Shown here: positions 1,567 through 27,816 of the stretch, piece after piece
Numbering within the stretch: the stretch's first letter is position 1
Layout: each line of letters opens with the position of its first letter
Source of the DNA: an uncultured Bdellovibrionales bacterium
GTDB lineage: Bacteria; Bdellovibrionota_C; UBA2361; SZUA-149; CALKYB01
Reading direction: 5' to 3'
NCBI GenBank assembly: GCA_964510575.1
Contig: CAZECN010000001.1
Location: 2,131-66,130 of the forward strand
DNA: 64,000 nucleotides
The notes under the pieces: model-generated
Seen by the model: only the letters and a program-made list of their open reading frames with translations
What the model was told of the DNA's origin: nothing
The model's database searches: none
Position numbers and translations under genes: made by a program

Positions 1567-1644
1567 GGTGGGTTCCTTTGTTAAGGCTCTAACTCTAATG
1601 TAGATTCTAGCAGCCTGACTGACAAACCCTTTTCTACTGTCATT

Positions 1645-2721: not shown

Positions 2722-3077
2722 GCTGGATTGTCGCTTCCTGCCTTAGCTTTGCTCTAAACCCCAAATTTGGCCAATGTTTAGCAAGTGGAAAGAGGGGCTA
2801 TCTTTCTGAAATTAAACAAACTTTTCTTAAGCTCTGATATCTCAGGGTGCTGCTCTTGACCCCAGCTGCGTATATCGAGATAAGAGGTGCCGAAAACAGG
2901 CTATTTAGTCAGTTCTATTGCTTTTAAGCTTTGTCCGTTTACCATGTGGCCCAGCATTAGATACTCCGCGTAGGGCTACTCGGGGCAGAGATATCTAGAG
3001 TGGCCCGATAGGTTGTTAGAGCTGACAGTTAAGCCCGAGATTTACAGGCTTTTTCTTGACCCCCTGGTCTGAGGATT

Positions 3078-3530: not shown

Positions 3531-3564
3531 AGTTTTGAGTTTTCTAGAAAGAGGAAAAGGCTTT

Positions 3565-4158
3565 ATGCATATTCGAAATCGTGGACTAAAGGAGCTTTTG
3601 TTCGCCAGTTTGCCTTTTCTTATTATCGCGACTCCAGCTCATGCCGCGGGCGGAAGCGCTGACCCAGTGATGACTTTTGTCTGGTCTATAATCAACTTTG
3701 CGCTTTTCTTCTTTTTGATGCTTGCTGTGTATAAGAAGAACATTGCCCGCTTAATTAGAGCGAGAAGTGCTAAGGTGGCTGAGCATCTTCAGCGTTCCCA
3801 GAATGCCCTGGCTGAGGCAGAGCAGGAGTATGGAGCTCTTAAAGAGAAACTAAATAACATCGAAGGGGTGAAAAAGGATCTTTTCGATCGTTACAATGAA
3901 GAAGGTCGAAAACAGTCTACTTTGCTGATTGAGTCCGGTAATACTAGTGCAGCTCGTATTCAGGCCGATGCTGAGCGTCAGGTTGGAACCGAGCTTTCTC
4001 AAGAGTCCAAAAAAATTAGAAAGGAAGTTGTAACGACCGCTGTAGGTAAAGCGACCAAGCAGTTGCAAAGTTTAAGCAAGGACGATGATGTCAAGCTTAG
4101 AGCTGATGCACTTCAGAGATTTCTCAATCAAAGCAGTGCGGCTCGACCGTCGGCGTAG
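3565..4158 (+). CDS. atpF: FoF1 ATP synthase subunit b
   Basis: An ATG at 3565 is preceded by the RBS GAGGAAAAGG. TM helix then a coiled-coil b-subunit pattern (AEAEQEYGALKEKL...). The track ORF starting at 3496 (TTG) would overlap the preceding gene, so the later start is preferred. Confidence 0.75.
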   Translation: MHIRNRGLKELLFASLPFLIIATPAHAAGGSADPVMTFVWSIINFALFFFLMLAVYKKNIARLIRARSAKVAEHLQRSQNALAEAEQEYGALKEKLNNIEGVKKDLFDRYNEEGRKQSTLLIESGNTSAARIQADAERQVGTELSQESKKIRKEVVTTAVGKATKQLQSLSKDDDVKLRADALQRFLNQSSAARPSA

Positions 4159-4173
4159 TTAGGAGATATAGTT

Positions 4174-4740
4174 TTGGCAAAAAAATCAGGAAAACTGGCA
4201 TCTAGGTATGCGCGAGCTCTTTTAGCTTCAGTTGAAAAAGAGCTTGGAGTGAGTGGTTCACCAACTCCGGCTCAAAAAATAGCTGCCGAGCTTCAGCAGT
4301 TTTCCACTATCTGGAAAAATGACCAGGAGCTTTCAAACGTATTGCTCAGCCCAATGTTTGCTAGAGAGCAGCGAACTGCTGCCTTGGAGTCTGTTGTTAA
4401 AGAAGCTGGGCTCACTGAAGTAACTAGAAAGTTTCTCAAAGTGGTTTTCCTGAGAGACCGAATAGCGGCATTGCCAGAAATAGCCGAGGCTTTTTCAGTT
4501 GTTGCTGATAGAGCAGCCTCAGTTGTTAGGGTGACTGTAAGCACAGCCAGAGAAATTGATAAGGTCGAAGCTGAAGGTATTGAAAAGGCCGTAGCTGGAA
4601 AGGTTGGCGGCAGCCCAGAGTTTACTTGGAATATTGACCCCAAGCTTTTAGGTGGCTTGGTTATTGAATATGCTGGGCAGATCTTCGACGGATCGTTGAG
4701 TGGTCAATTAGGAAAAATTGAAAAAGAACTTACTCCATAG
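4174..4740 (+). CDS. atpH: FoF1 ATP synthase subunit delta (OSCP)
   Basis: 188 aa, N-terminus YARALLAS, typical delta/OSCP size and position between b and alpha. TTG start with an AGGAGA RBS. Confidence 0.8.
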   Translation: MAKKSGKLASRYARALLASVEKELGVSGSPTPAQKIAAELQQFSTIWKNDQELSNVLLSPMFAREQRTAALESVVKEAGLTEVTRKFLKVVFLRDRIAALPEIAEAFSVVADRAASVVRVTVSTAREIDKVEAEGIEKAVAGKVGGSPEFTWNIDPKLLGGLVIEYAGQIFDGSLSGQLGKIEKELTP

Positions 4741-4809
4741 TGGCCCTACTGGTTGCTTGGAATAAACATAGATTTTACTGAAATAAGGAAAAACGGAGAA
4801 GAGATAGAG

Positions 4810-6387
4810 ATGGAAATCAAAGCTCAGGAAATTAGCAGAATTCTTAAAGAGCAGATCCAGGACTATGATGCCGGAGTTGAGCTTGCTGAAGTGGGAAGTG
4901 TGCTTTCGGTCGGTGATGGTATTGCCAGAATACATGGCCTTGAAGGCGTTGCCGCCGGTGAGCTGCTTGAGTTCCCGGGAGAGGTTATGGCAATTGCCCT
5001 TAACCTTGAAGAAGACAACGTCGGAGCCGTTTTAATGGGTGAGACTTCCTCGATTAAAGAAGGGGATATCGTAAAGCGAACCGGAAAAATTGCTGAGGTT
5101 CCAGTCGGTGAGGCCTTGGTCGGGCGTGTGGTCAACGCTCTTGGTCAGCCAATCGATGGTAAGGGTCCTATCGAAGCTAAAGAAACTCGAAGAATTGAGA
5201 TTAAGGCTCCTGGTATCATGGCTAGAAAGAGTGTTCATGAGCCTCTTCAAACTGGCCTTAAGGCTATCGACACGATGGTTCCAATTGGTCGTGGCCAGAG
5301 AGAGCTAATCATTGGAGACCGTCAAACTGGCAAGTCGGCGGTTGCCCTGGACACAATCATCAACCAAAAGGGTAAAGGCGTTACATGTATCTATGTAGCT
5401 ATCGGACAGAAGCGTTCTAGTGTCGCCCAAGTAGTGGACAAGCTCCGTGAAGAAGGAGCTCTGGATCATACAATTATTGTTTCAGCTTCAGCTTCTGAGC
5501 CAGCTCCTCTTTCCTTTATTGCTCCTTATTGTGGTTGCACAATGGGCGAATACTTCCGGGATAACGGTAAGCATGCTCTCATTGTTTACGATGATTTGTC
5601 TAAGCATGCTGTAGCTTACAGAGCTATTTCGCTGCTTCTAAGAAGACCTCCAGGACGTGAAGCTTATCCTGGAGATGTTTTCTACCTTCACTCCAGGTTG
5701 CTAGAGCGTGCTGCTAAAATGAGTGATGAGCAGGGAGCAGGATCGTTAACTGCCTTGCCTATCATTGAAACTCAGGCTGGAGATGTGTCTGCTTATATTC
5801 CAACTAACGTAATTTCGATTACTGATGGTCAGATATATTTGGAGTCGGACCTTTTCTATTCTGGTGTCCGCCCAGCTATTAACGTTGGACTTTCAGTTTC
5901 TAGGGTTGGTGGTTCTGCTCAGGTTAAAGCTATGAAAAAAGTAGCTGGAACATTGAGGCTAGACCTTGCCCAATATCGAGAAAAGCAGGCTTTTGCTCAG
6001 TTTGGTTCAGACCTTGATGAATCTACTCAAGCCCAGCTTTCAAGAGGTGAAAGGTTGGTTGAAGTTTTGAAGCAGGGACAATACGAGCCGATGGAAGTTG
6101 AGCTGCAAATTGTTTCAATTTTTGCTGCTAACAACGGATTCCTTGACGAGCTGGAAGTTGCAGATATTGGTGAATATGAAAAAGAATTACATCAATACGT
6201 TCAAGCCAACGCTAAGGAAGCTCTAGACGCGATCAGAGAAAAAGGTGCCACTAACGACGAACAGAACGCGGCGTTGAAGGAAGCAATTGGTAGTTTTACT
6301 AAAGACTTCTTGGCTACTAAAGGAGCAGCTCCGGCAGCTTCAGCAGCTAAGTCTTCTTCTGGGTCTGCAGCAGGAGCAGCGGCGTAA
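4810..6387 (+). CDS. atpA: FoF1 ATP synthase subunit alpha, with an unusual Ala/Ser-rich C-terminal tail of about 20 aa
   Basis: Walker A GDRQTGKS, conserved alpha blocks ([39 protein letters not shown]). ATG at 4810 follows the RBS GGAGAAGAG. The tail [24 protein letters not shown] is non-canonical. Confidence 0.95.
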
Positions 6388-6420
6388 CACTTTTTATCCT
6401 AGAAGGGAGAAGGCTTATAA

Positions 6421-7323
6421 ATGTCTAATCTAAAAGAAATCAGGCGCCGGATTGGCTCGGTGAGTAATACGAAACAGATTACTCGAGCTATGAAACTAGT
6501 TTCTGCAGCCAAGCTTAGAAGGGCTCAGGATGCAGCAACTGGTGGACGTGATTTTTCAAAGAGACTGGATCGAATTCTTGCTGAGCTAATGAGTAGTTTG
6601 CCTGAAGATTTTTCGCATCCTCTTTTGGAAAAAAGAGAGGTTATTAAGAAGCGAAGGCTAGTTGTTGTCTCTGGAGATAGGGGTCTTTGTGGGCCTTATA
6701 ATACCAACGTTCAAAAGGCAGTAATTAAGGAACTGGAAGCTTCAGAAGCTGAGAATGTAGAAGTAGACATGATTGCAATCGGTCGACGTGCTGTGTCTTC
6801 TGTTAATGCACGAGGATGGAACCTTGTGGAAGGCTATGAATCTCTCGCGACTGATCCAACGGAATGGCCAATTTCAGAGATTACAACAAGATGTGGAAAT
6901 GACTTTGAAAGCGAAGACTGCGACGAAGTTATTTTGCTTTATACTCATTTTCACTCGGCAGTTAGTCAGGAAGTGACCAGAGTTAGCTTGATACCATTTG
7001 AAGGTACCCCTGTTGGAACTGAAGCAGAGGATCAGTCCAAGGACGAAGAGCCTGCGTCGCTTAATAAGACAAAATGCGATCCGGATGCGGAGTCTATTGT
7101 CTCAGAGTTAATTAATGTTCTGATTTCTTCTAAGCTTACTCAAGCTATTTTAGAATCTAGAGCTAGTGAGCATGCAGCGCGAATGACTGCGATGGATGCT
7201 GCTACAAATAACGCTTCTGATTTAATAGGAAAGCTTAAGCTTACCTATAACAGAGCACGTCAAAGTGCGATTACAACAGAACTAATTGACATTGTGGGTG
7301 GTGCAGAAGCCACCAGTGGATAG
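6421..7323 (+). CDS. atpG: FoF1 ATP synthase subunit gamma
   Basis: N-terminus MSNLKEIRRRIGSVSNTKQITRAMKLVSAAKLRRAQ and C-terminus ITTELIDIVGGAEA are diagnostic for gamma. Confidence 0.9.
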   Translation: MSNLKEIRRRIGSVSNTKQITRAMKLVSAAKLRRAQDAATGGRDFSKRLDRILAELMSSLPEDFSHPLLEKREVIKKRRLVVVSGDRGLCGPYNTNVQKAVIKELEASEAENVEVDMIAIGRRAVSSVNARGWNLVEGYESLATDPTEWPISEITTRCGNDFESEDCDEVILLYTHFHSAVSQEVTRVSLIPFEGTPVGTEAEDQSKDEEPASLNKTKCDPDAESIVSELINVLISSKLTQAILESRASEHAARMTAMDAATNNASDLIGKLKLTYNRARQSAITTELIDIVGGAEATSG

Positions 7324-9652: not shown

Positions 9653-11476
9653 ATGCTAAGACTAGTAGTCATACCAGCCTATTTGGCTATATTTCACTTA
9701 AGTCTTGAATGGCTTTTTTTGGCAACAAAACCCTCATTTCTATCGAGGCTTTCTTACCTTGATCAATTCTTGGTTTATTTTAATTCTCTTGGCTTACCAA
9801 TTATCACTATTGTTTTAGTTTTTACAGTTCTTGTAGCTATCACCAAGGTCTTGTTTAAAGGATTCCCAATAAATTGGAGCAAAATAGTCTGGTGTATTCC
9901 TGCTGCCGCCATATTGGCATCCTTATGGTTTCTTCTTGCTAATACGTTCACTTATAACTTGTTTGGTCAGAGCATATTAGTAGAGCAAGGACGAGGTAGA
10001 CTAGTATACCTGCTTGTATTTGCTTTACTCTACACTTATTCCTTTAGTGTTTTGAATAAATTGATTAGAGAAAGTTTTTGGAAATACTATGAAAGAAAGT
10101 TACTGCTAGTTTTAGTGACTTTAGCCTTAGTATCAGTATGTTCCTGTCTCATAAGTAATCGACATTTAGAGGCTTCTTTAGACGATCTGAAGTTTGACTT
10201 GGATGCTAAAAGCGAACTACCTGATATTATTTTACTCTCTTCAGACGCTTTACTTTCATCTCATATGTCGGTTTATGGTTACGAAAGAGAGACTACACCC
10301 TTTTTAGCCAGTGATGATGACAGTTGGCTGATTTATGAAAATGCATTTTCTAACGCCAATCGCTCAGCAGGCTCAGTGCTTGCAATGCTGACTGGCCGGT
10401 CTCCACTTCACACTAAGATAATAACTTATCCTGATATTCTTCGTGGGCAAGATTCCCTCAGCCATTTTGTTGGACTGATTAGAAGTAAAGGCTATCGAAC
10501 CTTAGACATAAGTATTCGTGATTACGCTGATGCAGTAGATCGAAACATGTGCCTTGGCTTTGATTACGCCACTGGACGTAAATTGGATCAAGGCCTTTAC
10601 TCTATTCTAAGGAACTATCCTTCTTTACTTTGCTCAGATGAATTCTTTTTTCTTTCAAGAGTCTTTAGAAGATTAAACGAGCATTTGAAGCACACGCTTT
10701 ATCTAAAAAAAGTATCACTGTCCTGGCATAGTGTGACTAAAAAAGTTGATTTTTTTGAACAAGATGTAAAAAAGATGGATCGTCTTATGGAGTTTATTGA
10801 AAGCTCTAAAAAGCCGATATTTGCCCATGTGCACCTGTTGGGAACTCATGGACCGATGTATAGCCCTAAAAGCGAAGCCTTTTCAGGTGGACGTGACCAA
10901 AGTGAAGATCGAGAAATAGATTTCTATGATGACGCGATCAGAGACTTTGACCACCATATTGAACGGCTTATTTCGAGTCTGAAAGAAATAGGTAAACTAG
11001 AACAAACCTTAATAGTTATTCACTCTGACCATGATCGACACTTTAGAGTGGGTGGTCGTATACCACTTATGTTTAGATTTCCTAGGAAAGAGTTTATTGG
11101 TCGAAAACATCTTAACGCTCAGCTGTTAGATATCGCCCCTACTATTTTAGACTATCTTGGATCGGCAGAGCTGGACTGGATAGATGGGGAGAGTCTTTTT
11201 AATACTGACCTTGAGCCTGATCGTTTGTTGGTTGGCCTATCAGATATTTACCCATTTAAGCATTACTATTCAGCAGAACCTCCCTTTTTTAATATTGACT
11301 CTATCGAGCTTATCAGATGCGATAGACAGCTCTCCTATTCGGTTGACTCGAAAGAGATTACTGAAAGGCGTATTAAGGGGCATACCAAGCCATGTGAGAG
11401 TAATCCTTGGGATCGACCCGGGCAAGCTATGCGAGACATAGAGCAGCAAATTTCTATTTTTCTAAGCTCTGACTAA
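9653..11476 (+). CDS. Membrane-anchored alkaline-phosphatase-superfamily enzyme (LtaS/EptA/OpgB-like sulfatase-fold phosphotransferase)
   Basis: About 180 aa of N-terminal TM helices, then a sulfatase-fold domain: SAGSVLAMLTGRSP (Ser/Thr-nucleophile variant of the C-x-P-x-R region) and HLLGTHGPMY. The architecture matches LtaS/EptA-type transferases. Confidence 0.7.
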   Translation: MLRLVVIPAYLAIFHLSLEWLFLATKPSFLSRLSYLDQFLVYFNSLGLPIITIVLVFTVLVAITKVLFKGFPINWSKIVWCIPAAAILASLWFLLANTFTYNLFGQSILVEQGRGRLVYLLVFALLYTYSFSVLNKLIRESFWKYYERKLLLVLVTLALVSVCSCLISNRHLEASLDDLKFDLDAKSELPDIILLSSDALLSSHMSVYGYERETTPFLASDDDSWLIYENAFSNANRSAGSVLAMLTGRSPLHTKIITYPDILRGQDSLSHFVGLIRSKGYRTLDISIRDYADAVDRNMCLGFDYATGRKLDQGLYSILRNYPSLLCSDEFFFLSRVFRRLNEHLKHTLYLKKVSLSWHSVTKKVDFFEQDVKKMDRLMEFIESSKKPIFAHVHLLGTHGPMYSPKSEAFSGGRDQSEDREIDFYDDAIRDFDHHIERLISSLKEIGKLEQTLIVIHSDHDRHFRVGGRIPLMFRFPRKEFIGRKHLNAQLLDIAPTILDYLGSAELDWIDGESLFNTDLEPDRLLVGLSDIYPFKHYYSAEPPFFNIDSIELIRCDRQLSYSVDSKEITERRIKGHTKPCESNPWDRPGQAMRDIEQQISIFLSSD

Positions 11477-11589
11477 AGTTCCTTTGGTCTGTTTGGCTTA
11501 ATGAATATACTGAAACCAGTTTAAATTCCGTGTCTGGCAGTGCTACGCACTTTATACCCCTTTACGACAGGTACAGAAAAAGCCAGAAT

Positions 11590-11925
11590 TTAAAGTAGAC
11601 GGGGTATATACTGCGCCTCATTTAAATTTCGGTTTAGCTAGACTAAGCATGGGCGCAGTATAAAGCCGAACTTTTAGTTCTGCCAAAAGACCATAGACTC
11701 AACCTCCAAGTATGCTTTTCAAGGCCTTTAGGCCTTGTCTGATTTTACTATCATTCAGAAAAACATGGGTAGGGTATTTGAACACTCTACTGGAAAAACG
11801 CTAGTCGCGTTTTACAGAGTTTTAGACGCAGTATCTGTCTTATGGCCATGCTAGCGCATGGCCGATATACTCAACCCTGCTAAACGCATAAAGGACCAAA
11901 TTTAAATCAGGTTGAGTATATAAGT
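11590..11925. repeat. Copy A of a roughly 330-bp noncoding repeat element, in an intergenic leader upstream of the 12024 gene
   Basis: Aligns block by block with the reverse complement of 19215-19535 at about 85% identity. Contains TATATACTGCGCC (11605-11617) / GGCGCAGTATAA (11652-11663), the perfect 20-nt palindrome GGCCATGCTAGCGCATGGCC (11844-11863), and TATACTCAACC (11866-11876) / GGTTGAGTATATA (11910-11922). Confidence 0.8.
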
Positions 11926-12023
11926 TTAAAGTCTTTTACCGTTGCCAAAACTTTGGCCCCATCTGATATTGACTATATCCAGTGGTTTAATTGAGCAGTG
12001 ATAAATAAGAGATAGGAACTTTT

Positions 12024-13322
12024 TTGAATTTAGCTTTAACTGATAGTTTTATCACGGATCTAGTTAATTCTAAGCGTTTGATTTATCGCTTTGTTCGAAT
12101 TTTACTGTTCTTACTATTTGCAGCACTGGCAATAGATAACTTTCGAGCTGGGATGGATTCCCTGCAAGAAAGACATGTGTTTGGAAAAGATTTTTTGCAA
12201 GAGTACTTGCTTGCTGTTGCTACTGTTAGAGGAGAGGATCCATATCAATCAGTTTCACAATTAGAGAAAAAGTTTCTTAATATTGCAGGAGAGACCAATG
12301 TTTTTCCACATGCGACCCCTCACCCTCCCTCTTTAATTCCTTATATTCTTTGGATGGAGAAGTTTGATTACTTCACCATGGCTAGTTTTTGGATGGTAGC
12401 AGAGGTTTTAATGACTTTTACTTCTGTCTTTTTTTGTTGGAGATATCTTTCTTTGACGAAGATTAGCCCATATTCACTTTTTTCTTTCCTCGCCTTTGTT
12501 GCAGGCTCTCAAGTCTTTAGAAGTGAATTAATATCTGGCCAACTAAATTCCGTCTTATTGCTTCTTGTTACAGGAATGCTGATCTTTGAAGATAGAAAGA
12601 AAGATCTTCTAGCTGGCACTTGTTTAGGCTTATGCCTTTCAATAAAATTTTTTGGAATTGCTTTTCTCGTATTCTACTTGCTTAAGCGTAAATTTAAATT
12701 AGTTATTGTTAGCGTATTAATTTTCTTATTTAGCTTGGGAGTGAGCTCTGTTCTTATTTCAGTGGAGACAACTTTTGATTATTTTATTTCAATTGCTCCT
12801 CAAGTCTCCAAGCTTTACCAAGGAGATAGTCATAATTTTTCTCCACTAGTTCTTCCTCAAAGAATATTTGAAGGAACCCATTCGCTAGTATCTACGAAGA
12901 ATAAGGCAATAGAACCGTTGGTTTTATTGCCTAGCCTAATTGAACCACTAAAATATCTTTTGGCATTATTTTTACTACTTGTCTCTTTATTACAAGCTGT
13001 CAGTGAAAAAGAGAGAAGGCTTCAAATTCCCAGCTTGATAGTTGGAAGTTTGGCGGTCTTCCCTAATCTTTGGGAGCATAGTCTCCTTGTTTTAATTCCA
13101 GTTTTATTGCCGACCTGGTCGAATAGCTCAAGAATCAAGCTAAGTGAAGTTTTAATACTAGTTCTTTTCTTTTTTGGTAACTTTGGTTTGTATTTTTATG
13201 ATAAAAGTTCACTTGGTTTTTGGGAAGGCTTGGTGACTTTAATTCCAACTGCTATTCTTATAGCTGTTATCCTGAATAGATCGGAAACCTTTTTCAGAAA
13301 TGAAAAAGATATTATCTCTTAG
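12024..13322 (+). CDS. Polytopic membrane protein, possibly a GT-C-fold glycosyltransferase (DUF2029/PMT-like)
   Basis: 432 aa with more than 10 predicted TM helices. TTG start. Sits in the island with LtaS-like enzymes. No diagnostic motif could be verified. Confidence 0.4.
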   Translation: MNLALTDSFITDLVNSKRLIYRFVRILLFLLFAALAIDNFRAGMDSLQERHVFGKDFLQEYLLAVATVRGEDPYQSVSQLEKKFLNIAGETNVFPHATPHPPSLIPYILWMEKFDYFTMASFWMVAEVLMTFTSVFFCWRYLSLTKISPYSLFSFLAFVAGSQVFRSELISGQLNSVLLLLVTGMLIFEDRKKDLLAGTCLGLCLSIKFFGIAFLVFYLLKRKFKLVIVSVLIFLFSLGVSSVLISVETTFDYFISIAPQVSKLYQGDSHNFSPLVLPQRIFEGTHSLVSTKNKAIEPLVLLPSLIEPLKYLLALFLLLVSLLQAVSEKERRLQIPSLIVGSLAVFPNLWEHSLLVLIPVLLPTWSNSSRIKLSEVLILVLFFFGNFGLYFYDKSSLGFWEGLVTLIPTAILIAVILNRSETFFRNEKDIIS

Positions 13323-13498
13323 CTTGCGAGATACTTTTCTATTTTTCGCTTTTTATTTCCTCGACTTAAACAGGCTCTTTTAGGTATTCTTTGTAGTAAG
13401 GCTTAAATGCTCTATGACTGAAGACTTGTCTCTAAGCTAATGCGGTCTTATGGCAAAAAATCACTATTCACCTCAATTTTTTAGTCTTTCTGATCGTT

Positions 13499-14725
13499 AT
13501 GAGTGAGCTTCATCTATTCAAACTAAATATCGAAAACAGAGAAACTAGTATTCAGGCAGTCTTATTGTGTTTATTCTACTTAGTCTTAAGTTTTTTCATC
13601 TTACGCGCGAAAACTGTTACCCAGGACACTTATATTCCCAAAAATCCCAGAGGACAGCTGGTTAAAACAGCTATTTCTTTTGCAGATGGCGAGGGTCTTT
13701 ATCAGAAAAGATTTCAAGACTTAGATAAAGCTTTATCAACTTATACCTCAGGCCCTGGTCAGTCTTATCTCCAGAGTGAACTACCATTTAATAGTTCTCC
13801 CTCAACTTGGGAGCCAAGTTTGTATCAAGATATATTTTCTGTTTCCACTAGTGGAAAACTAACTCCGAAACATCCTTGGTTTGTTTCATTAGTAGCCAGC
13901 CCTTTTTACTCAATTGCAGGTCTTCCAGGGGTTTGGTTTTTTAACCAGCTTTTGCTAGCAGGTTTTTTTGTTTCTGGCTTTTTACTTCTTCGTGAGCACG
14001 ATAAAAGTCTATTTCCTTTCATCTTTGCTTTTTCTTTCCCTTTACTTTTGTTTCAAACAGTTTTTTTTGCGAGGGCTGGACTTAGTCACGATTTGTTCGC
14101 AGCTTTTACAATTGTCTTAGCTTTTGCCGCAGTAAGAACATGCCCTTCTTTAGCGATGTTATTATTTGGAATTAGTGCTTATTGTAGAGTAACTAACTTA
14201 TCTTTCTTGCCTTTTTTGTTGATTTATAATCATTTCGGAGAAAATAGATCACTAGCCTCTTTGCACCAGAAATTAAGAAGTTTCACTGTATTGTTCATTG
14301 TAGTTTTACCATTATTTCTAACCAACCTAATCATTTGGGGTTCACCGATTTCAGGGTCTTATTCCAGACTTCCAGTTTATGAACATGGAGAGAGAGTTTT
14401 TGGTCACTCAAAGAATGACCACTTTTTTGATTTTAAAATCGCGATAGATCATGGGATGTCCAGGGTCACAGAGGGGAGGGATGGTCTTTTAAGAAATTTG
14501 CCGATTTTCATTTTTACCTTTCCTTTGGCTATGCTTCTTTTTTGGCTTGGTAAAAAGCGGGATTTTTATCTCCTTTTTGGGGCGGCAGTGTTTCAAAGCT
14601 TACTTTATTTGAGCTTCAACCACTGGGAGGGTGCTGTCGGATGGCGTTTTGTTTTAGTGGCTGGAATGTTTATGGCTGTGGTACTCGGTCGATGCATTGG
14701 GGATATTTGTTCTTCTAGAGTCTGA
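13499..14725 (+). CDS. Polytopic membrane protein of unknown function (possible GT-C-like)
   Basis: 408 aa, multiple TM helices, same strand as and downstream of 12024..13322. Confidence 0.4.
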   Translation: MSELHLFKLNIENRETSIQAVLLCLFYLVLSFFILRAKTVTQDTYIPKNPRGQLVKTAISFADGEGLYQKRFQDLDKALSTYTSGPGQSYLQSELPFNSSPSTWEPSLYQDIFSVSTSGKLTPKHPWFVSLVASPFYSIAGLPGVWFFNQLLLAGFFVSGFLLLREHDKSLFPFIFAFSFPLLLFQTVFFARAGLSHDLFAAFTIVLAFAAVRTCPSLAMLLFGISAYCRVTNLSFLPFLLIYNHFGENRSLASLHQKLRSFTVLFIVVLPLFLTNLIIWGSPISGSYSRLPVYEHGERVFGHSKNDHFFDFKIAIDHGMSRVTEGRDGLLRNLPIFIFTFPLAMLLFWLGKKRDFYLLFGAAVFQSLLYLSFNHWEGAVGWRFVLVAGMFMAVVLGRCIGDICSSRV

Positions 14726-14976
14726 AGCAGCACAAAATAATTGTAGGTGAAAAGTTGGTTTTCGTTTTGATTTCTTAGTATTACTTTAACATTACATTTT
14801 TATAAAATAACTCGTGAGCTTTTGGCTAAGGGTGCCGTCGGTATTACCTTCTTTGATTATTTTGTTATCAATTATAGTTAAAAACAGCCATTCCTCGTTG
14901 ATAAATCAATAGAAATAAAAATCGTACCTTATGTAAATGAATAGAGGGTAAAAAATCAATTCAGTAGATCGGAGAA

Positions 14977-17001
14977 CTATTCACTGAAGCTTGGTTTCTC
15001 CACCGCCACAATAGAATTGTGTTGAGGAGGAAAGTAGTTTTTCCTTTCAAAGACAGGCAAGTGTTTGTAGTATGTCAGTTGCTTATTTTCAAACAAAGTG
15101 AGTATTTCGGATAACTTCTCATATACTTCTGGGTTCTTTAGTTGATTTCTTTCGTGAGGATCTGAGGCTATATTGAATAAACGCTCACCTCGCCCTCTAT
15201 AATTCCTAGTTAACTTGAAAGGATAGTAAATTAGAGCTGACTCATCGGTGATTGATTGATTCGTGGTATAAATCGTCCTAGCCGGCTTTGCTTGCTGATC
15301 TGCTTCTCTTAAGAGACTTTGTCCTTGATGGTTTGGATGAGGCTCAAGACCTGCAAGATGTAATATTGTAGGAGGTAAGTCTATATGCCCGACTGGGAGA
15401 CTTACCGTGTGTCGAGGTTTAAAGTTGGCTGTGCTGCTAAATATTATGGGCACGTTAATTGCTTCTTCATAAAGGTAAGAAGCATGGTTTGCAATACCAT
15501 GCTCGTTGAACATGCTTCCATGATCTCCAGTAATCAAAAGAATTGTATTGGAAGGCAGTGTTCGAGCGAACTTTTCTATGATTTCATCTAGGTAGTTTAA
15601 ACAGTTCCAGTAACGGTTTTGCATTGTAGCTGTAAGTCTATCGGGATAGTAGACAAAGCCAGGAATTCTTGAAATTTCGGTTGGTTGAAAATTAGTTCTA
15701 CTAGTTCTATTTTGATTGAATGGAAAATGAGTTGAGTACAAATATGCCATAGCAAATACAGGCTTGTTTTCTGAACCGCTCTCTTTAACGAAGTCCTGGA
15801 TTAAGCTTAGCTTTTTTTCGTCAGAGCCTGCTAAGTCTTGTCTATGAGTTTCCTCAGCAGAATGCCCTTTATCCTGCCCCCTAGTTTTTTCTTCAGTTGA
15901 AATAGTAGGATCGAAATATAAATTTAATCTAGGAGAATCTGTAACTCGCCGAGTAACTTGCCACTGTTCAGCGAGAAGGGCTGAGTTATACCCAGATTCA
16001 CTAAGAAGGTCGTATATCCGGGTAAAAGGATAGTCTAGCGATAAGTGGGCATCCTTTTTTATATCTTTGAGTGGATATAGACCGGTGATCAGAGTGGTAA
16101 AACTATCCCCTGTATCAGCTGCTTGAGAATATCCTTTTGGGAAAAAAAGTCCGGTTTGAGAAAGTTTATTTAGGTAGGGCATTATATCTTGCCCTTCTAC
16201 CTTTTTACCTATGACGTCAGCACGTAAAGCCTCAACAACTAAAAATATAATATTAGGCCTGTTTTCAAAGGGGATTGATGGAGAGTAACTATATTCTTTG
16301 TTTGCGGGCACTAAATCTAGATTGACAGTTTGAATTTTTCGACTAGAGCTATCGTAAAGAAATTCTCCAAATAGGCTAAGGGAAGGGAGAGAGTAGTGAT
16401 TTACTAAAAGTCCGAGTTGGCCAATTTGGTTGGGAGACATTCTCGACTTATTATTTTGGATAAAAATTAAATTAGTTGCTAGAAGAGTAACCAAAAGAAA
16501 AATCTTTGGTTTTAGTGAGCTGTTCTTTTTCGAAAAAAAACATGAAAAGTAGACTAGGGTAACCGCTGTTAAGGGAATGGTCAGTGCGAATAATATTTCT
16601 CTCGCAGATAAAAGATCGAGTAGTTGGCTAATATCCAGCAGAAATAAAGATAAGAATAAGTCGCTTTGATGTAGAAAGCTTCCTGAAAAATACCACTTAG
16701 CCCAACTTGCCCAACTAGTTATAAGCCAAAGGCACATAATTATAGCGGGAAAAAGACCTACTATCTTGACTAAAAAGCCTTGGGAGTCCTGTAAAAGTTT
16801 TTTTATTATAGAAGCTAGAATCGATAGAAGGAGTAGTTCAATCACTAGAGCGGTGAATACATGATTATGGCACGCAAAGTAGGCTTTGGCTTCTATGGCC
16901 AACCAGCTTGTTTCTTCTAGTTGTTGCTTTCTAAACCAGATGGATGGCAAGAGTGTTGCTGAAAATAAAACGAGATACTTTAGGTAGGTCTTAGTTCTCA
17001 T
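14977..17001 (-). CDS. Membrane-anchored alkaline-phosphatase-superfamily enzyme (LtaS/EptA/OpgB-like)
   Basis: About 230 aa of N-terminal TM region, then a sulfatase-fold domain: NIIFLVVEALRAD, TGDSFTTLITGLYP (Thr in place of the FGly Cys), LLITGDHG. Confidence 0.7.
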   Translation of the reverse strand: MRTKTYLKYLVLFSATLLPSIWFRKQQLEETSWLAIEAKAYFACHNHVFTALVIELLLLSILASIIKKLLQDSQGFLVKIVGLFPAIIMCLWLITSWASWAKWYFSGSFLHQSDLFLSLFLLDISQLLDLLSAREILFALTIPLTAVTLVYFSCFFSKKNSSLKPKIFLLVTLLATNLIFIQNNKSRMSPNQIGQLGLLVNHYSLPSLSLFGEFLYDSSSRKIQTVNLDLVPANKEYSYSPSIPFENRPNIIFLVVEALRADVIGKKVEGQDIMPYLNKLSQTGLFFPKGYSQAADTGDSFTTLITGLYPLKDIKKDAHLSLDYPFTRIYDLLSESGYNSALLAEQWQVTRRVTDSPRLNLYFDPTISTEEKTRGQDKGHSAEETHRQDLAGSDEKKLSLIQDFVKESGSENKPVFAMAYLYSTHFPFNQNRTSRTNFQPTEISRIPGFVYYPDRLTATMQNRYWNCLNYLDEIIEKFARTLPSNTILLITGDHGSMFNEHGIANHASYLYEEAINVPIIFSSTANFKPRHTVSLPVGHIDLPPTILHLAGLEPHPNHQGQSLLREADQQAKPARTIYTTNQSITDESALIYYPFKLTRNYRGRGERLFNIASDPHERNQLKNPEVYEKLSEILTLFENKQLTYYKHLPVFERKNYFPPQHNSIVAVEKPSFSE

Positions 17002-17208
17002 AAAAGAGTTAAGGCAGATTAACTAATAATATATCAACCTAGCTTATATTTCGCTTTTCAGAGGTCTGGTTGAGGGTACAATCAATGGGTCAGCACTGCT
17101 ATTAGATAACTATACTTCGTCAAAAGATGCTGCAAGTCTAAAGGACTTGGCAAGAAAAGGGTTTTTTATTGGAGAAAAGTCACTATATCACTCGTAGCGA
17201 GTTTTTCT

Positions 17209-17781
17209 TTATCCTATTTTATAGTTTAGGCACATTTTTCTACTTTTAAATTTTTTTTGAAGAGAAACTTTAAAACCGTCTTTCTTCAACTCTAGTGTCT
17301 CCTGGTGGTCGGATTGACTATGCTCCCAAACCAAGTGGACAGGGTAGGCTAGTGATATTTCTTTCATAAAACCCTCTTCCCTAAAATTTAGTAAATACCA
17401 CTCCCACTCCAGCCGAGCTAACTCTGGCAGATAGAACAAAGACTTAGCCTCAGGTCTAACTTCAGTCAGCTCTTCTAGGTAGCTTTCAAATCGATCACCG
17501 TATTGATTTAGATCAGGCTCATCTGGGGGAAATTTATGAAAGTAGTCTGCCGCGATTTGTTTGAAGTAATCTTCTCCAACAACTTTGCAGCAGGCGGGAA
17601 AGGTATCTTTTAGCGCTCCATAAAGGTTGGAGCGAACAGTCTGGCGATAGATGCTGATTTGTTTTTGAGGAGAACGCTTTCCTCCACTGGGAAAGAGGTC
17701 TAGCACTCCTGTCTCCTCATTAAGCCTGGGAGAGACAATAGCTCCTTTAATAAGAGCTTGGATTTCAGCCAGTCGCTTCAT
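17209..17781 (-). CDS. DUF2063-family protein (BufC/MbnC-like partner of MNIO enzymes)
   Basis: The N-terminal domain matches the DUF2063 pattern (IQALIKGAI...YRQTVRSNLYGALKDTFPACCKVVGEDYFKQIAADYF). Overlaps the upstream DUF692 gene by 17 nt. Confidence 0.6.
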   Translation of the reverse strand: MKRLAEIQALIKGAIVSPRLNEETGVLDLFPSGGKRSPQKQISIYRQTVRSNLYGALKDTFPACCKVVGEDYFKQIAADYFHKFPPDEPDLNQYGDRFESYLEELTEVRPEAKSLFYLPELARLEWEWYLLNFREEGFMKEISLAYPVHLVWEHSQSDHQETLELKKDGFKVSLQKKFKSRKMCLNYKIG

Positions 17782-18631
17782 GAAGCAGAGGCTGAGGGTT
17801 TAGTATCTGGTCTGCCTTGGAAGCTTCACAAGCGAGCACTGAAAATTCAGGAATATCGTTGTCCCACTCAATTAAAGAAGGAGTATCCCCACAATGTTCA
17901 ATTGCTGCTCTGTATATCTCCCAAACATCGTCTGGAACTTCCCGACTGTGAGTGTCGAGCATATAACCATCTCGCTCTTCTCCACCAGCTAAGTGAATCT
18001 CGCCAACCCTTTCTGCTGGGATGGAGCGAATATAATCCATGGCTTTGTCTCCATGGTTATACTGGCTAACGTAGATATTGTTTACATCTAGCAAAATACC
18101 GCAGTCAGCTTTTTCAGCCACGGCAGAGATAAACTCAGCCTCAGGCATTTGAGACTCTTTAAAAGTTAAGTAACTTGAAACGTTTTCAATCAATAACTTA
18201 CGTCCGAGAAAATCCTGAATTTCAGAGATTCTACCAGCAACGTGATTGATCGTCTCTTCAGTGTAGGGCAGGGGAAGTAGGTCATGAAAGTTGACCCCAT
18301 GGGCAGATGTCCAGCAAAGGTGTTCTGAGACCCATGCGGGTTGGAAGCGGTCAGCTAGAGCCTTTATTTTACCAACATAGTCCCAGTTTATAGGGTCAGT
18401 TGAGCCAACTGACATACCAACGCTGTGCATGGTAATTGGATAATGAGAACGTATTTGTTCAAGGTCAGCTAGAGCTTCACCTTCCGGGCCAAAGTAATTA
18501 TCAGTGAGAACTTCAAACCAGTTTATGTCTGGCTTATGCTCTAAAACGAAATCTAAGTGTTGGGGGCGCAGACCGATACCGGCTCCCGATACCGGCCTGC
18601 TTGATAATTGGTAATGAGTATTATTCTTCAT
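17765..18631 (-). CDS. DUF692 / MNIO (multinuclear non-heme iron oxidative) enzyme, BufB/MbnB-like
   Basis: GAGIGLRPQH... WVSEHLCW... LLPLPYTEE... LLIENVSSY... GCGILLDVNNIYVS... EIHLAGG... LIEWDNDIP. These are the full set of conserved DUF692 blocks. Confidence 0.8.
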   Translation of the reverse strand: MKNNTHYQLSSRPVSGAGIGLRPQHLDFVLEHKPDINWFEVLTDNYFGPEGEALADLEQIRSHYPITMHSVGMSVGSTDPINWDYVGKIKALADRFQPAWVSEHLCWTSAHGVNFHDLLPLPYTEETINHVAGRISEIQDFLGRKLLIENVSSYLTFKESQMPEAEFISAVAEKADCGILLDVNNIYVSQYNHGDKAMDYIRSIPAERVGEIHLAGGEERDGYMLDTHSREVPDDVWEIYRAAIEHCGDTPSLIEWDNDIPEFSVLACEASKADQILNPQPLLHEATG

Positions 18632-18649
18632 TACTAAGGATTGACTAAT

Positions 18650-19075
18650 TTACTTAGTCATATCTCCCATTATTTTGTCAGACATTTTATCGACCATGTC
18701 AGTTGTTTTATCTGCCATTTTGCCGGTCATGGCTTTAGTTTTATCAGTCATGGCAGCAGCTTTGTCGGTCATTTTATCAGCCATGCCTGCAGCAGGTTTT
18801 TCCCCTACAACTTTAGCTCCAACGATCTTGTCGCAAGCGCCTTTAGGAAGATAAAGCCATTCAGTTGGGTCGGAGTCCTTGTCAGCTTTACCAGAGCAGC
18901 TGTGACGGCCATCAGTTGAGCCACAATCGTTTTTTCCAGCCTTAGAGACACCAGCGCATTTTTCCCATGCTGTTGGAGCACCTGGAACACCAGCTTGAGC
19001 TTCACCAGCAAGAGATAAAGTAAGGGCTCCAGCAGCTGCTAGTCCTAGAAGAGTTGAGTCTTTTTTAATAGTCAT
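18650..19075 (-). CDS. DUF2282-family (bufferin-like) RiPP precursor: Sec signal peptide, 4-Cys core, C-terminal Met-rich repeat tail
   Basis: Signal peptide MTIKKDSTLLGLAAAGALTLSLAGEAQA. The core WEKCAGVSKAGKNDCGSTDGRHSCSG...DPTEWLYLPKGACDKIVG matches the DUF2282 consensus. The tail GMADKMTDKAAAMTDKTKAMTGKMADKTTDMVDKMSDKIMGDMTK has 9 Met in 44 aa. The gene lies 19 bp upstream of the MNIO gene. Confidence 0.75.
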   Translation of the reverse strand: MTIKKDSTLLGLAAAGALTLSLAGEAQAGVPGAPTAWEKCAGVSKAGKNDCGSTDGRHSCSGKADKDSDPTEWLYLPKGACDKIVGAKVVGEKPAAGMADKMTDKAAAMTDKTKAMTGKMADKTTDMVDKMSDKIMGDMTK

Positions 19076-19214
19076 TAAATTTATGCTCCAAAAGTGGTGA
19101 GTGCTTGCTATTCAGAACACCCACTTCAAATTAGCCAATATATTACTGCTTTGGACGATTACTTCGTAAGGTTAGTTAACCCGTTATAAGTTAATTTTTC
19201 AAATTTTTAAGCTC

Positions 19215-19535
19215 TTCAGGTGATATACTCAACCTACTTTAAATTTCGTCTTTTAAGGATGTGACCGGGTTGAGTATATTCGCCATGCGTTAGCATGGCC
19301 AAGAGACCAATACTGCGCCTGAAGCTCTCTAAAACGCGACCAGCGTTTTTCTATTAGAGTCTCCAAATACCTCGATTCTCTGGATTAGTAATTAATTTAG
19401 ACAAGACCTAAAGGTCTTGAAAAGCATATTTAGAGGTTGAGTATATGGTTTTTTGGCCTCGCCTGCGCTCGGCTCTATACTGCGCCTATCCTCAATCTAT
19501 CAAAACCTAAATTTCAATGAGGCGCAGTATCTTTG
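19215..19535. repeat. Copy B (inverted) of the roughly 330-bp noncoding repeat element, upstream of the bufferin-like operon and downstream of pstB
   Basis: Reverse complement of copy A. Motifs: GATATACTCAACC 19222-19234, GGGTTGAGTATAT 19267-19279, palindrome 19282-19300, ATACTGCGCC 19309-19319, GGTTGAGTATATGG 19435-19448, TATACTGCGCC 19486-19496, GGCGCAGTATC 19521-19531. Confidence 0.8.
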
Positions 19536-22158: not shown

Positions 22159-22164
22159 CTGACT

Positions 22165-23412: not shown

Positions 23413-23447
23413 AACGGGTACCTTGAAAATTAGTTGTCTTAGTTTAC

Positions 23448-27806: not shown

Positions 27807-27816
27807 AGCTTTAGAA

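Follow-up and report, generated by a model that had tools for sequence, protein, structure and literature searches.

Hairpin-forming repeat modules as the probable termini of a MITE-like element in a little-sampled bacterial lineage

The classical target of IS630 is CTAG, the central TA of which is duplicated. Elements of the REPIN/BIME and IS200/IS605 types have neither terminal inverted repeats nor target duplications; they are characterized by short loops, a conserved 5′ tetranucleotide, and a gene for a Y1 transposase, and the ends of IS200/IS605 are similar hairpins located on the same strand. In the Correia elements of Neisseria (CREE, NEMIS) the terminal inverted repeats begin with TATA and insertion is at TA; their first six bases serve as a −10 hexamer, and there are promoters at either end (PMC2649163). 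The Correia repeat comprises 26 bp, TATAG[CT]GGATTAA(ATTTAAA/CAAAAA)(CCGGTAC/TCAGGAC) (PMC2649163), and TATAGTGGATTAAATTTAAATCAGGACAA is a published Correia repeat sequence (PMC5039591).

In the window analysed here, a stretch of 64,000 nt from an uncultured Bdellovibrionales bacterium, two 11-nt inverted-repeat modules and a palindrome had been noticed in the initial annotation, and sequence reading together with a pattern search confirmed all three (Table 1). They had also been said to recur in a second copy (copy B). Both modules are indeed retained there, module 1 with the first T of its outer arm changed to G; the palindrome is retained as well, with a 7-bp stem and a changed loop (GTTA/TAAC), but its description as a perfect 20-nt palindrome is true of copy A only, because copy B has lost the outermost pair. 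Perfect 11-nt inverted repeats with spacers of 25–45 nt are represented in the whole 64-kb window by these four modules only; in first-order Markov simulations that reproduced the frequencies of dinucleotide transitions in the window, chance yielded 0.76 such repeats on average and 5 at most. When up to one mismatch is allowed, TATACTGCGCC is present 5 times in the window (0.44 expected) and TATACTCAACC 6 times (0.93 expected).

The modules had been interpreted as the internal architecture of a local duplicate; instead, they mark the ends of an element that is dispersed and whose insertions differ between related genomes. We consider it probable that they represent the left and the right end of a non-coding, non-autonomous mobile element of the MITE kind, approximately 316 bp in length. 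When copies A and B are aligned, the modules coincide exactly with both ends of the repeat unit. The "loops" are not free either; read from the outside inwards, T-N2-TTTAAATTYSGG-YTTT is common to both ends, and the two modules therefore constitute an imperfect terminal inverted repeat of 56 nt, whose 25-nt ends are 84% complementary and whose 56-nt modules align over their whole length as inverted copies. The interior of the element contains a third copy of either arm type. For type 2 this is S3, which repeats S5 in direct orientation and is the complement of the right terminus (S6); for type 1 it is S4, which repeats S2 in direct orientation and is the complement of the left terminus (S1). 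With 309–318 nt the full-length copies are of a size expected for non-coding MITEs (less than approximately 600 bp), and as they contain only unconserved ORFs of 20–39 aa, a coding function was rejected.

Table 1. Coordinates of the element copies, their parts, and related sites in the window; parts of copy B are given in + strand coordinates
Feature	Coordinates	Strand	Remarks
Element copy A, full length, ~318 nt	11605–11922	+	Ends from A/B and six-copy alignments
Module 1, left arm TATATACTGCGCC, right arm GGCGCAGTATAA	11605–11617, 11652–11663		34-nt spacer
S1, left terminal arm TATACTGCGCC, type 1	11607–11617	+	
Module-1 spacer	11618–11651	+	Includes tttaaatttc; conserved block TCATTTAAATTTCGGTTT adjoins terminal arm
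S2, inner arm GGCGCAGTATA	11652–11662	+	Complementary to S1
Leftward promoter-like site	11686 to 11657	−	TTGGCA, 18 nt, TATACT (S2)
S3, third type-2 arm	11694–11704	+	TAGACTCAACC in copy A, TATACTCAACC in other copies
Internal hairpin CAAGGCC-TTTA-GGCCTTG	11720–11737	+	Compensatory changes; terminator-like in scan
Internal hairpin AAAACGC-TAGTC-GCGTTTT	11795–11813	+	DNA fold z-score −3.45
S4, third type-1 arm	11825–11835	+	GACGCAGTATC in copy A, GGCGCAGTAT in other copies
Rightward promoter-like site	11843–11848 (−35-like)		TGGCCA; −10 is TATACT of S5
Palindrome GGCCATGC-TAGC-GCATGGCC	11844–11863	+	Overlaps −35-like TGGCCA
Module 2, left arm GATATACTCAACC, right arm GGTTGAGTATATA	11864–11876, 11910–11922		33-nt spacer
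S5, inner arm TATACTCAACC, type 2	11866–11876	+	
S6, right terminal arm GGTTGAGTATA	11910–11920	+	AAATTTAAATCA before it
Element copy B, full length, 309 nt	19223–19531	−	78% identical to A
Copy B, module 2	19224–19278		
Copy B, S6	19224–19234		
Copy B, S5	19268–19278		
Copy B, palindrome	19282–19300		
Copy B, S4	19309–19319		
Copy B, S3	19435–19445		
Copy B, module 1	19476–19531		
Copy B, S2	19476–19486		
Copy B, S1	19521–19531		
Composite relic abutting copy A	11505–11609	+	TA common to both
Decayed right-hand part of a copy	17029–17150	−	Between bufC and 674-aa sulfatase-family gene; nhmmer E = 1.1e-4
Empty site	48940–48960	+	Orthologous position in CALIEE01 filled (L016 3907–4051, 145-nt short form)

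The copies have precise ends, lie dispersed beside unrelated genes, are present in one and absent from another of closely related genomes, and have TA at their junctions. Copy A is situated 130 nt downstream of a sulfatase-family gene and 101 nt upstream of a gene for a GT87 glycosyltransferase, copy B 34 nt downstream of pstB and 147 nt upstream of bufA; in a six-copy alignment the flanking sequence is not conserved. At least seven further copies or loci, 69–77% identical to copy A, are found in the related MAG CALIEE01, in both orientations and next to genes for an MFS transporter, a histidine kinase, an EamA transporter, bioB, and others. There, the copy boundaries are identical at both ends of L011, L029, and L031, and at the left end only of L013, which starts at its contig start and is thus cut. 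The short form in L016 occupies a site which is empty, and reads CTAG, in the window; comparison of the filled (AATC-TA-[GACTG...GAGTA]-TA-TAAGG) with the empty site (AATCTAGAAGG), the single clean pair of this kind, fits a TA duplication with two substitutions, or a 3-bp duplication (TAG/TAT) with one. TA flanks nearly all ends and may belong to the element itself. Copy B, in turn, is missing between pstB and bufA in a relative whose PstB is 95% and whose BufA is 94% identical, which makes it an apparently recent insertion, and also in a more distant relative; its site is empty in three related assemblies (L053, L054, and L055). Insertions are thus polymorphic between related genomes in both directions, L016 being filled in CALIEE01 and copy B in the window.

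Truncated, nested, and decayed copies belong to the family as well, and the window, with two full copies and two relics, holds several dispersed copies as expected of a MITE. The relic abutting copy A is composite; TATACTGAAACC-AG-TTTAAATTC (type 3) resembles a left end, and behind it stands a right-end module, TATACCCC...GGGGTATA (type 4, 11553–11608). Against a MITE count the detection of the family in two related genomes only and the identity of its copies (69–78%), which are far more diverged than those of a typical recent MITE burst. The divergence of the copies contrasts with the recent-looking insertion of copy B. Approximately 14 kb of the contig beyond both window edges contain no additional copies, and approximately 88 kb from more distant relatives (BBAY59, L063) contain no copy.

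A partner providing the mobilising enzyme was sought in approximately 80 kb of the host genome and 45 kb of CALIEE01. Among the window ORFs scanned against Pfam there was none with a transposase, integrase, or reverse-transcriptase domain, and in the loci of this lineage that were analysed no matching ends were found 0.4–4 kb apart; nor was an autonomous insertion sequence with the same ends present among the window proteins scanned, the CALIEE01 loci, or the plasmid, phage, viral, and JGI metagenome collections. The 408-aa protein encoded between the copies, which has no Pfam or NCBIfam match, was considered as a transposase and rejected, as its hydrophobic stretches, judged by eye, are more like those of a polytopic membrane protein. 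The element had no blastn match in plasmid and phage collections, 12 hits obtained in a scan of JGI metagenomes with ACTGCGCCTCATTNAAATT were all due to chance, with no similarity beyond the pattern, and two IMG/VR scans gave pattern-level matches only. Hairpins with identical arms from Perlucidibaca/Paraperlucidibaca, found in a scan of genome collections, are unrelated; they are part of the ettA 5′ leader and their right arm holds the start codon (MAQYIY...). Perfect palindromes of approximately 60 nt in a Bacteroidetes MAG and scattered hairpins in Bacteroidota were treated as coincidence, because a palindromic family need match only one 11-nt arm of the search pattern.

Like the Correia elements, the element of the window is non-coding, present in multiple copies, mostly intergenic, and situated just upstream of genes; its ends begin with TATA and have a −10-like TATACT, TA is found at the junctions, length variants arise by internal deletion in both, and for neither is a mobilising enzyme known. 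In a hand alignment of the ends with TATAGTGGATTAAATTTAAATCAGGACAA, 15–16 of the first 26 bases match, including TATA-T at positions 1–6 and ATTTAAAT at 14–21, which is beyond the 3 mismatches that define CREE, and positions 7–13 are unrelated. The element also differs from CREE in length (309–318 nt, and 145 nt for the short form, versus 69–157 bp, that is, 69–73, 104–108, and 153–157), and the host is not Neisseria, its SecA being at most 61% identical to named sequences (Bdellovibrionota, Oligoflexia, and "Deltaproteobacteria" MAGs). Further, an inner inverted copy of the first 11–12 nt gives each end a local hairpin, every arm recurs a third time across the element, and left and right are distinguished by a 5-nt block that covaries. 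The similarity to the Correia termini may serve as a lead, but is not evidence of common descent; TATA-T and ATTTAAAT at 14–21 could point to the enzyme that moves Correia elements.

TA at both junctions, terminal inverted repeats, and the lack of coding capacity are shared with bacterial MITEs derived from the IS630/Tc1-mariner family; however, no IS630-type transposase or autonomous copy was found for the window element in the searches described above, its putative TA duplication rests on one comparison with mismatches, and to our knowledge covarying hairpin ends have not been described for that family. Integron attC sites are similar in being approximately 55 nt long, in conserving structure over sequence, and in their variable central part, and module 2 happens to fit their inverse-core and core consensus (ACTCAAC ... 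GTTGAGT versus RYYYAAC ... GTTRRRY). This fit is restricted to the CAACC type; modules 1, 3, and 4, and the GCGCC, GAAACC, and CCCCG types, are off the core consensus; the window proteins scanned include no integrase and there is no cassette array, and the modules are paired and bound a non-coding unit of 316 nt rather than following each ORF.

Stem-loops had been suggested as one interpretation of the modules, with RNA folding and covariation as a check, and this part of the initial annotation is supported: across 18 end modules the arms behave as base-paired stems. The arms covary, with 93.9% of cells paired and 6 of the 11 pairs changed on both sides, a degree of covariation reached by 0 of 500 shuffles. 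Such pairing might take place in RNA, in single-stranded DNA, or in a cruciform. The inner 5–6 nt occur as variants, each with its complement (GCGCC/GGCGC, CAACC/GGTTG, GAAACC/GGTTTC, and CCCCG/CGGGG), and the variable arm positions change only in a complementary fashion. Copy L031 contains a compensatory change, TATGCT/AGCATA, and in this copy S3, S5, and S6 are changed together; other copies of the same genome keep the usual base. Likewise, GAAACC is found at all of S3, S5, and S6 in the L008 subfamily.

Covariation extends to three internal hairpins, the palindrome and two other small ones, the pairing of which is maintained through compensatory changes. The palindrome of L008 reads GGCTTTGC-TTAC-GCAAAGC, with two compensatory pairs. 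In the first of the two hairpins (at 11720 in copy A) a G-C pair is replaced by A-T in copy B, and the stem is CAAGAGC/GCTCTTG in L008 and CAAGTC/GACTTG in the decayed copy (17029–17150), where the hairpin is retained and the arms are degraded (TGTACCCTCAACC / GGTTGATATAT). The block of the second (at 11795) has a mean pairwise identity of 0.93 across five full-length copies, and at its position L008 has a different palindrome, GCGAAG/CTTCGC. These compensatory changes suggest a function beyond simple end recognition and in this respect count against a MITE, as does the difference between the left and right termini in the 5-nt block, which would be uncommon for ends recognised over their full length by a sequence-specific DDE transposase.

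Folding of copy A as RNA gives z-scores of −4.9 for the + strand and −6.2 for the − strand, and the hairpins have z-scores of −3.5 to −5.3 as DNA. In the minimum-free-energy fold of copy A, S3 pairs with S6; long-range pairings forced by hard constraints lie 0–11 kcal/mol from the local-hairpin fold. Each terminus is a unit of 55–56 nt, composed, from the outside inwards, of TATACT, a variable block of 5–6 nt, and the conserved T-N2-TTTAAATTYSGG-YTTT block; it continues for about 15 bases and closes with the complement of its first 11–12 nt. The two units, being inverted copies, therefore make up a long imperfect terminal inverted repeat, and each can fold on itself. As every terminal arm recurs across the element (the left one as S4, the right one as S3), two local hairpins or, alternatively, a long-range pairing of a terminus with the far side of the element can form in a single strand. 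A transposase encoded elsewhere would move the element in trans, recognising TATACT and TTTAAATT as the blocks that do not vary; of the variable block only pairing would be required, which would imply a step with single-stranded or extruded ends. It is possible, though unlikely, that the termini represent an undescribed design of transposon ends, namely terminal hairpins with a freely evolving "address" of 5–6 nt, a third copy of which lies beside the opposite end (S1, S2, and S4 versus S3, S5, and S6), and a single strand, DNA or RNA, that switches to cross-end pairing and thereby joins the termini.

Promoter-like sites, identified as consensus matches only, are present at both ends of both copies (Table 1). 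In the −10 hexamer, pairing is better conserved than sequence, which is AATACT in L029 and TATGCT in L031. Inspection by eye for a junction promoter across abutted ends revealed no −35 hexamer. Judged from sequence, the outward promoter-like site of each end, with TATACT of the inner arm as −10, is likely a side effect of the element.

The predicted structure could also be that of an RNA, the element then being a multi-copy gene for a structured non-coding RNA of approximately 316 nt or a domesticated repeat acting in read-through transcripts (e.g., as RNase III substrate, stabiliser, or switch between S5:S6 and S3:S6). Such a role would agree with the strong structure predicted on both strands, several helices with compensatory changes, near-isoenergetic alternative pairings, and two G-T wobbles on the + strand (module 1 of L008, hairpin of L013), but seems quite unlikely. 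Rfam 15 gave no matches in the whole window at gathering thresholds, and only four chance-level ones (15.4 bits or less) in the region 11400–12100 with E up to 10; a scan for tRNA and tmRNA was also negative. Upstream of the left end there is no conserved promoter, because the flanks are unrelated, and the only conserved promoter-like sites face outwards and would not transcribe the element, which occurs in both orientations relative to neighbouring genes and is missing at orthologous sites of close relatives. Nor is there a consistent strand signal, because copy A has one C-A mismatch (S1:S4) that would turn into a wobble on the opposite strand.

We regard it as improbable that the element moves as single-stranded DNA by means of a hairpin-recognising HUH/Y1 enzyme, in the manner of palindrome-associated elements derived from IS200/IS605 or of REP/REPIN sequences moved by RAYT, rather than by DDE cut-and-paste at TA. 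Like REPIN/BIME and IS200/IS605-derived elements it is a dispersed intergenic unit with paired inverted sequences which form single-strand hairpins and whose halves change coordinately; stem sequences that vary freely provided pairing holds, three-site covariation and cross-end complementarity, internal hairpins maintained by compensatory changes, and long-range alternatives energetically close to the local-hairpin fold would all suit a folded single strand. However, one end module is the reverse complement of the other, which makes the pair a genuine terminal inverted repeat, both junctions have TA, the loops are of approximately 33 nt rather than 3–6 nt, a conserved 5′ tetranucleotide was not seen, and the window proteins scanned contain no Y1 transposase domain (Y1_Tnp).

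The initial annotation had further considered binding sites for two paralogous dimeric DNA-binding proteins, which would make the modules operators co-regulating the GT87 and the bufABC operons. Copies A and B do lie upstream of one operon each, in the same relative orientation, and their arms are perfectly conserved while the remainder is about 75% identical; nevertheless, such operators are highly improbable. There are at least four arm variants, not two, each with its own complement and changing only in complementary fashion; the copies in CALIEE01 lie beside unrelated genes in either orientation; relatives retain bufABC beside pstB without the element, the orthologous spacer of three related assemblies lacking the site; the half-sites are 45 bp apart from centre to centre; and the single-base change of L031 is mirrored at three sites of that one copy only. 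A composite transposon or invertible segment of 7.3 kb, with A and B as inverted ends bracketing the glycosyltransferase, sulfatase, and bufABC genes (11923–19222, with a G+C content of 36–40% versus approximately 42–44%), is equally implausible and was ruled out, because bufABC lies beside pstB in two element-free relatives and so was not brought in between the copies, and because inversion that is still going on, or a recent transposition of both copies together, would have left them more alike than 78%; besides, the segment encodes no recombinase or transposase, and additional relics lie inside and beside it.

The symmetry upstream of the GT87 and bufferin (bufABC) operons is thus the footprint of a mobile repeat and not a conserved regulatory device, and for annotation the modules are unsuitable for inferring a regulon. 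If copy B is as recent as it appears, the features it has in common with other copies are plausibly needed by the transposition machinery and not selected by the host at that site; these features are base pairs rather than sequences, and include the three-site covariation that links a terminus to the site beside the other end. Should folding be needed for mobility, the element would have a folded single-stranded intermediate and yet inverted-repeat termini and a TA target, a combination which we know of in no prokaryotic family. Because outward promoter-like sites are located at the ends, insertions upstream of GT87 and bufA may change the transcription of these genes. Correia elements rewire gene expression in Neisseria; insertions of the element described here may do so for envelope-modification and metal-stress genes. 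The element represents a new MITE-like family with hairpin-forming ends in one barely sampled bacterial lineage and is, as such, of moderate biological interest.

The two inverted-repeat modules at 11605-11922 are best read as the termini of a non-autonomous mobile element of the MITE (miniature inverted-repeat transposable element) kind. All coordinates of the initial annotation were borne out by reading of the window and by pattern searches. Alignment of this unit (copy A) with the reverse complement of a second one (copy B) gives 78% identity over 315 nt, the similarity running precisely from the outer arm of module 1, the left one, to that of module 2; because these limits coincide with the outer arms, the modules form both ends of a 309-318 nt repeat unit. 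Both modules and a perfect palindrome had been reported as conserved in copy B; all are kept there (minus strand), the palindrome with only a 7-bp stem and an altered loop (19282-19300). Copies A and B have two modules each, and these four are the sole perfect 11-nt inverted repeats in the 64 kb whose spacer measures 25-45 nt, while simulated sequences with the window's dinucleotide transition frequencies contain a mean of 0.76; the modules are not a chance occurrence.

The first and last 25 nt of the unit are 84% complementary. From the outside in, every end module follows a common plan, that is, TATAC(T/C), 5-6 variable bases, T-N2-TTTAAATTYSGG-YTTT, about 15 more bases and the complement of the first 11-12 bases; what had been described as spacers therefore belongs to a 56-nt imperfect terminal inverted repeat, as its inner part. 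With the arm sites numbered from the left terminus (S1) to the right one (S6), each arm type has a third copy inside the element, and the layout is S1> S2< S3> ... S4< S5> S6<, where S1, S2 and S4 share one type and S3, S5 and S6 the other; reversing the orientation of the element exchanges its two arm types. Two additional copies lie within the same 8-kb stretch as copies A and B.

Features of the element and of its surroundings in the window
Feature	Position	Strand	Description
Copy A	11605-11922	+	element
Module 1, copy A	11605-11617, 11652-11663	+	TATATACTGCGCC, 34-nt spacer, GGCGCAGTATAA (direct reading, pattern search)
S3	11694		TAGACTCAACC in copy A, TATACTCAACC in other copies; repeat of S5, complement of right terminus S6
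S4	11825		GACGCAGTATC in copy A, GGCGCAGTAT elsewhere; repeat of S2, complement of left terminus S1
Palindrome, copy A	11844-11863		GGCCATGC-TAGC-GCATGGCC
Module 2, copy A	11864-11876, 11910-11922	+	GATATACTCAACC, 33-nt spacer, GGTTGAGTATATA (direct reading, pattern search)
Copy B	19223-19531	-	element
Composite relic	11505-11609		abuts copy A, TA common to both; GAAACC-type left end, CCCC-type right module
Decayed right-hand part of element	17029-17150	-
Envelope-modification cluster	9653-17001		two sulfatase/LTA-synthase/EptA-like proteins (607, 674 aa), GT87 glycosyltransferase, 408-aa protein; G+C lower (36-40%)
Bufferin-type RiPP operon	17209-19075	-
DUF2063/HvfC	17209-17781	-
MNIO enzyme MbnB/TglH/ChrH	17765-18631	-
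BufA1/DUF2282 precursor	18650-19075	-
Direct repeats in bufA	18674-18793		33-nt period; encode repetitive Met/Asp/Lys-rich C-terminal tail (...MADKMTDKAAAMTDKTKAMTGKMADKTTDMVDKMSDK...)
Eight predicted proteins, 148-585 aa	23448-24077, 28330-29934, 33078-34835, 41919-42365, 43177-45768, 48775-50055		no Pfam match at E <= 1e-5
Two large FG-GAP repeat proteins	30023-32881, 34953-36785		near the Pfam-less proteins

One scan of a species-representative genome collection, with a pattern covering both arm types, gave 35 loci, seven of them from a single MAG, CALIEE01 ("uncultured bacterium R1_Bin_METABAT__11_1"), a close relative of the window organism (83-94% protein identity at one syntenic locus, L016). 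Three of the seven are full-length copies (L011, L029, L031), one is cut at the contig end (L013), one is 5'-truncated (L023), L016 is a 145-nt short form with a deletion between the direct repeats S2 and S4, and L008 represents a variant subfamily with an 85-nt nested insertion. The alignable copies (L011, L029, L031, L013) are 68-77% identical to copy A over the aligned length and have exactly the same boundaries. The CALIEE01 copies adjoin unrelated housekeeping genes (MFS transporter, histidine kinase, EamA transporter, Mur ligase, bioB, proS), and the downstream gene is faced by either element end. The nested insertion in L008 (3207-3291), just before S3, consists of a hairpin module (TATACCCCGC, 33 nt, GCGGGGTTATA) and a small GC-rich hairpin, which suggests that single end modules are able to occur or move alone. 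Nothing like the element was found in plasmid and phage collections, IMG/VR or the JGI metagenome collection, nor was a similar one present in about 88 kb from more distant relatives of the lineage.

The arms form paired stems and are not fixed in sequence; the stem-loop reading proposed initially holds. In an alignment of 18 end modules, standard pairs fill 93.9% of the arm cells versus 81% after shuffling and 23-49% with one side slid; two-sided changes affect 6 of the 11 arm pairs, and no shuffle reached the observed covariation, the cells of which represent few independent events, chiefly the four stem types GCGCC, CAACC, GAAACC and CCCCG. L031 carries TATGCT at S3 and S5 and AGCATA at S6, a coordinated three-site change, with TATACT/AGTATA retained in L011 and L029 of the same genome; the L008 subfamily has GAAACC at S3, S5 and S6. 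Both cases tie S3 to the right terminus, and the GCGCC type is likewise common to S1, S2 and S4. Compensatory changes also keep the pairing of an internal hairpin, CAAGGCC/GGCCTTG (CAAGACC/GGTCTTG in copy B, CAAGAGC/GCTCTTG in L008, CAAGTC/GACTTG in the decayed copy), and of the palindrome, where GGCCATGC/GCATGGCC becomes GGCTTTGC/GCAAAGC in L008. Conservation is concentrated in the arms and small hairpins: among the five full copies, mean pairwise identity is 0.87-1.0 for the six arms and 0.83-0.93 for the three small hairpins (the palindrome and the AAAACGC hairpin both reaching 0.92-0.93), versus 0.50-0.72 for linkers, loops and central region.

Folding is significantly better than for shuffled sequences in every module and hairpin, both as DNA (z-scores -3.5 to -5.3) and as RNA of either strand; S3:S6 or S1:S4 folds forced by hard constraints lie 0-11 kcal/mol from the local-hairpin fold and are near-equal to it in L011. 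A structured RNA gene or domesticated RNA element would likewise fold and covary, but wobble pairs show no consistent single-strand preference and searches of Rfam gave no match to the element; we regard this explanation as unlikely. A single-strand (HUH-type) mechanism is quite improbable: REPIN and IS200/IS605-type elements have a paired, coordinated hairpin logic in common with the window element but are without duplications and without inverted termini, which it has. Integron attC sites resemble the end modules in size and in conserving structure over sequence, but just one stem type among the four agrees with their core consensus.

Insertion presence differs between related genomes in two comparisons. 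The L016 short form separates trpC from a lipoprotein-like gene, with a start codon 12 nt downstream, and the orthologous window site (48940-48960) is empty; the sequence is AATC-TA-(GACTGCGCC...GGTTGAGTA)-TA-TAAGG where the element is present and AATCTAGAAGG where it is absent, lengths compatible with a TA duplication at CTAG (allowing two substitutions) or a TAG/TAT duplication (one). The pstB-bufA spacer of the window, which contains copy B, measures 490 nt; in the relatives L054 and L055 (PstB 95%, BufA 94% identical) it measures 146 nt and is without the element, and in the more distant BBAY59 relative 124 nt. The left flank of copy B is further changed compared with the relatives, so that the exact junctions are blurred. 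Since copy B is missing where PstB and BufA are that similar, yet is only 78% identical to copy A, several old sublineages are suggested to be still insertion-competent, and features common to the copies would reflect the needs of propagation rather than host selection in place. That the modules are operators for two paralogous DNA-binding proteins, as had been offered from their two inner sequences, is hardly credible given four stem types, unrelated neighbours in CALIEE01 and absence from the relatives' pstB-bufA spacers. For the 7.3 kb from copy A to copy B to be a composite or invertible segment is just as implausible, because the close and the more distant relatives alike keep bufABC beside pstB, so that it was not imported between the copies.

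In the window and three related assemblies (L053, L054, L055), the bufferin operon directly adjoins pstSCAB; the repetitive BufA tail is kept in the 94% identical relative. All four window copies lie in or beside the envelope-modification cluster, which looks like a variable island; the closest homologue of its 607-aa protein is only 55% identical and has another gene context (L051, a relative also encoding ATP-citrate lyase beside flagellar genes), and the BBAY59 relative has different glycosyltransferase and methyltransferase genes after bufC. The lineage is very poorly sampled: PstB has one JGI relative at 82%, all others being at most 61% identical, and SecA (L056 13767-16544) has relatives at 89%, 70% and 67%, with named sequences only at 57-61% (Bdellovibrionota, Oligoflexia, "Deltaproteobacteria" and Dadabacteria MAGs).

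Direct Pfam scanning of the window ORFs outside 1-7323, 20432-28200, 50261-50686 and 52157-64000 turned up no transposase, integrase or reverse transcriptase, and precomputed Pfam labels on matching contig loci show no such domain for 1-7323 and 52157-63438. The 408-aa protein between copies A and B matches neither Pfam nor NCBIfam and, from its translation, reads like a polytopic membrane protein; in none of the examined loci of this family does a pair of matching ends enclose an ORF. For the MITE-like element, a transposase would be supplied in trans, the candidate recognition blocks being two invariant ones, TATACT at the very tip and, roughly one and a half helical turns inward, TTTAAATTYSGG. 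Base pairing of the ends is of importance at some stage, to judge from the covarying block and from the inner inverted and cross-end copies; that stage may be cruciform extrusion, a single-stranded DNA intermediate or RNA.

The closest described system is the Correia element (CREE) of Neisseria. Correia elements are non-coding, multi-copy and mostly upstream of genes; their inverted repeats start with TATA, insertion is at TA, the first six bases are a -10 hexamer with promoters at the ends, length variants arise by deletion, and the mobilising enzyme is still not known (PMC2649163, PMC5039591, PMC10969869). The window element has all of these properties in common with them, its promoters being consensus matches only. 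By hand alignment its termini match the published 26-bp Correia repeat at 15-16 positions, including TATA-T and ATTTAAAT at exactly 14-21; the mismatches exceed the three that define the family, to which it thus does not belong. It is also two to three times longer, its host is unrelated, and its hairpin-forming ends and third arm copy have no Correia counterpart. The TA (CTAG) target is one that IS630-type MITEs have as well, but the scanned ORFs include no IS630-type transposase.

Copies A and B carry the same two outward-facing sigma-70-like consensus matches. The rightward one (TGGCCA, 17 nt, TATACT) has S5 as -10 and a -35 overlapping the palindrome; the leftward one (TTGGCA or TTGGCC, 17-18 nt, TATACT) has the reverse complement of S2 as -10. 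The GGCCA blocks do not vary in any copy, and all nine copies with readable neighbours lie 12-147 nt upstream of a start codon, none between convergent genes, a sample too small for significance. The predicted -10 hexamer varies (AATACT in L029, TATGCT in L031); because its identity is less conserved than its pairing, promoter function is not the main constraint on the arms.

Similar hairpins occur elsewhere. In Paraperlucidibaca and Perlucidibaca (L012 1762-1815; L018, L027) a hairpin with identical 11-nt arms, TATACTGCGCC ... GGCGCAGTATA, lies in the 5' leader of ettA; three species conserve it, and it has no relation to the element. Its right arm includes the start codon and first codons (MAQYIY...), and it is possibly a translation-masking stem. 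The Bacteroidetes MAG HyVt-532 (L005, L006, L007, L015, L017, L019, L036, L037) has multi-copy near-perfect palindromes of about 60 nt, TATACTG(A/C)ACC-A..TAGGTTTTCCCGA....TCGGGAAAACCTA..T-GGT(T/G)CAGTATA, with the first six bases identical to the window modules and alike paired variation at positions 7-11, and several other Bacteroidota genomes have single long hairpins starting TATACTCAACC or TATACTCAGCC; this likeness may reflect chance or a recognition motif common to both.

The feature is a new family within a known kind of element, and its unusual end architecture makes a full-genome census worthwhile.
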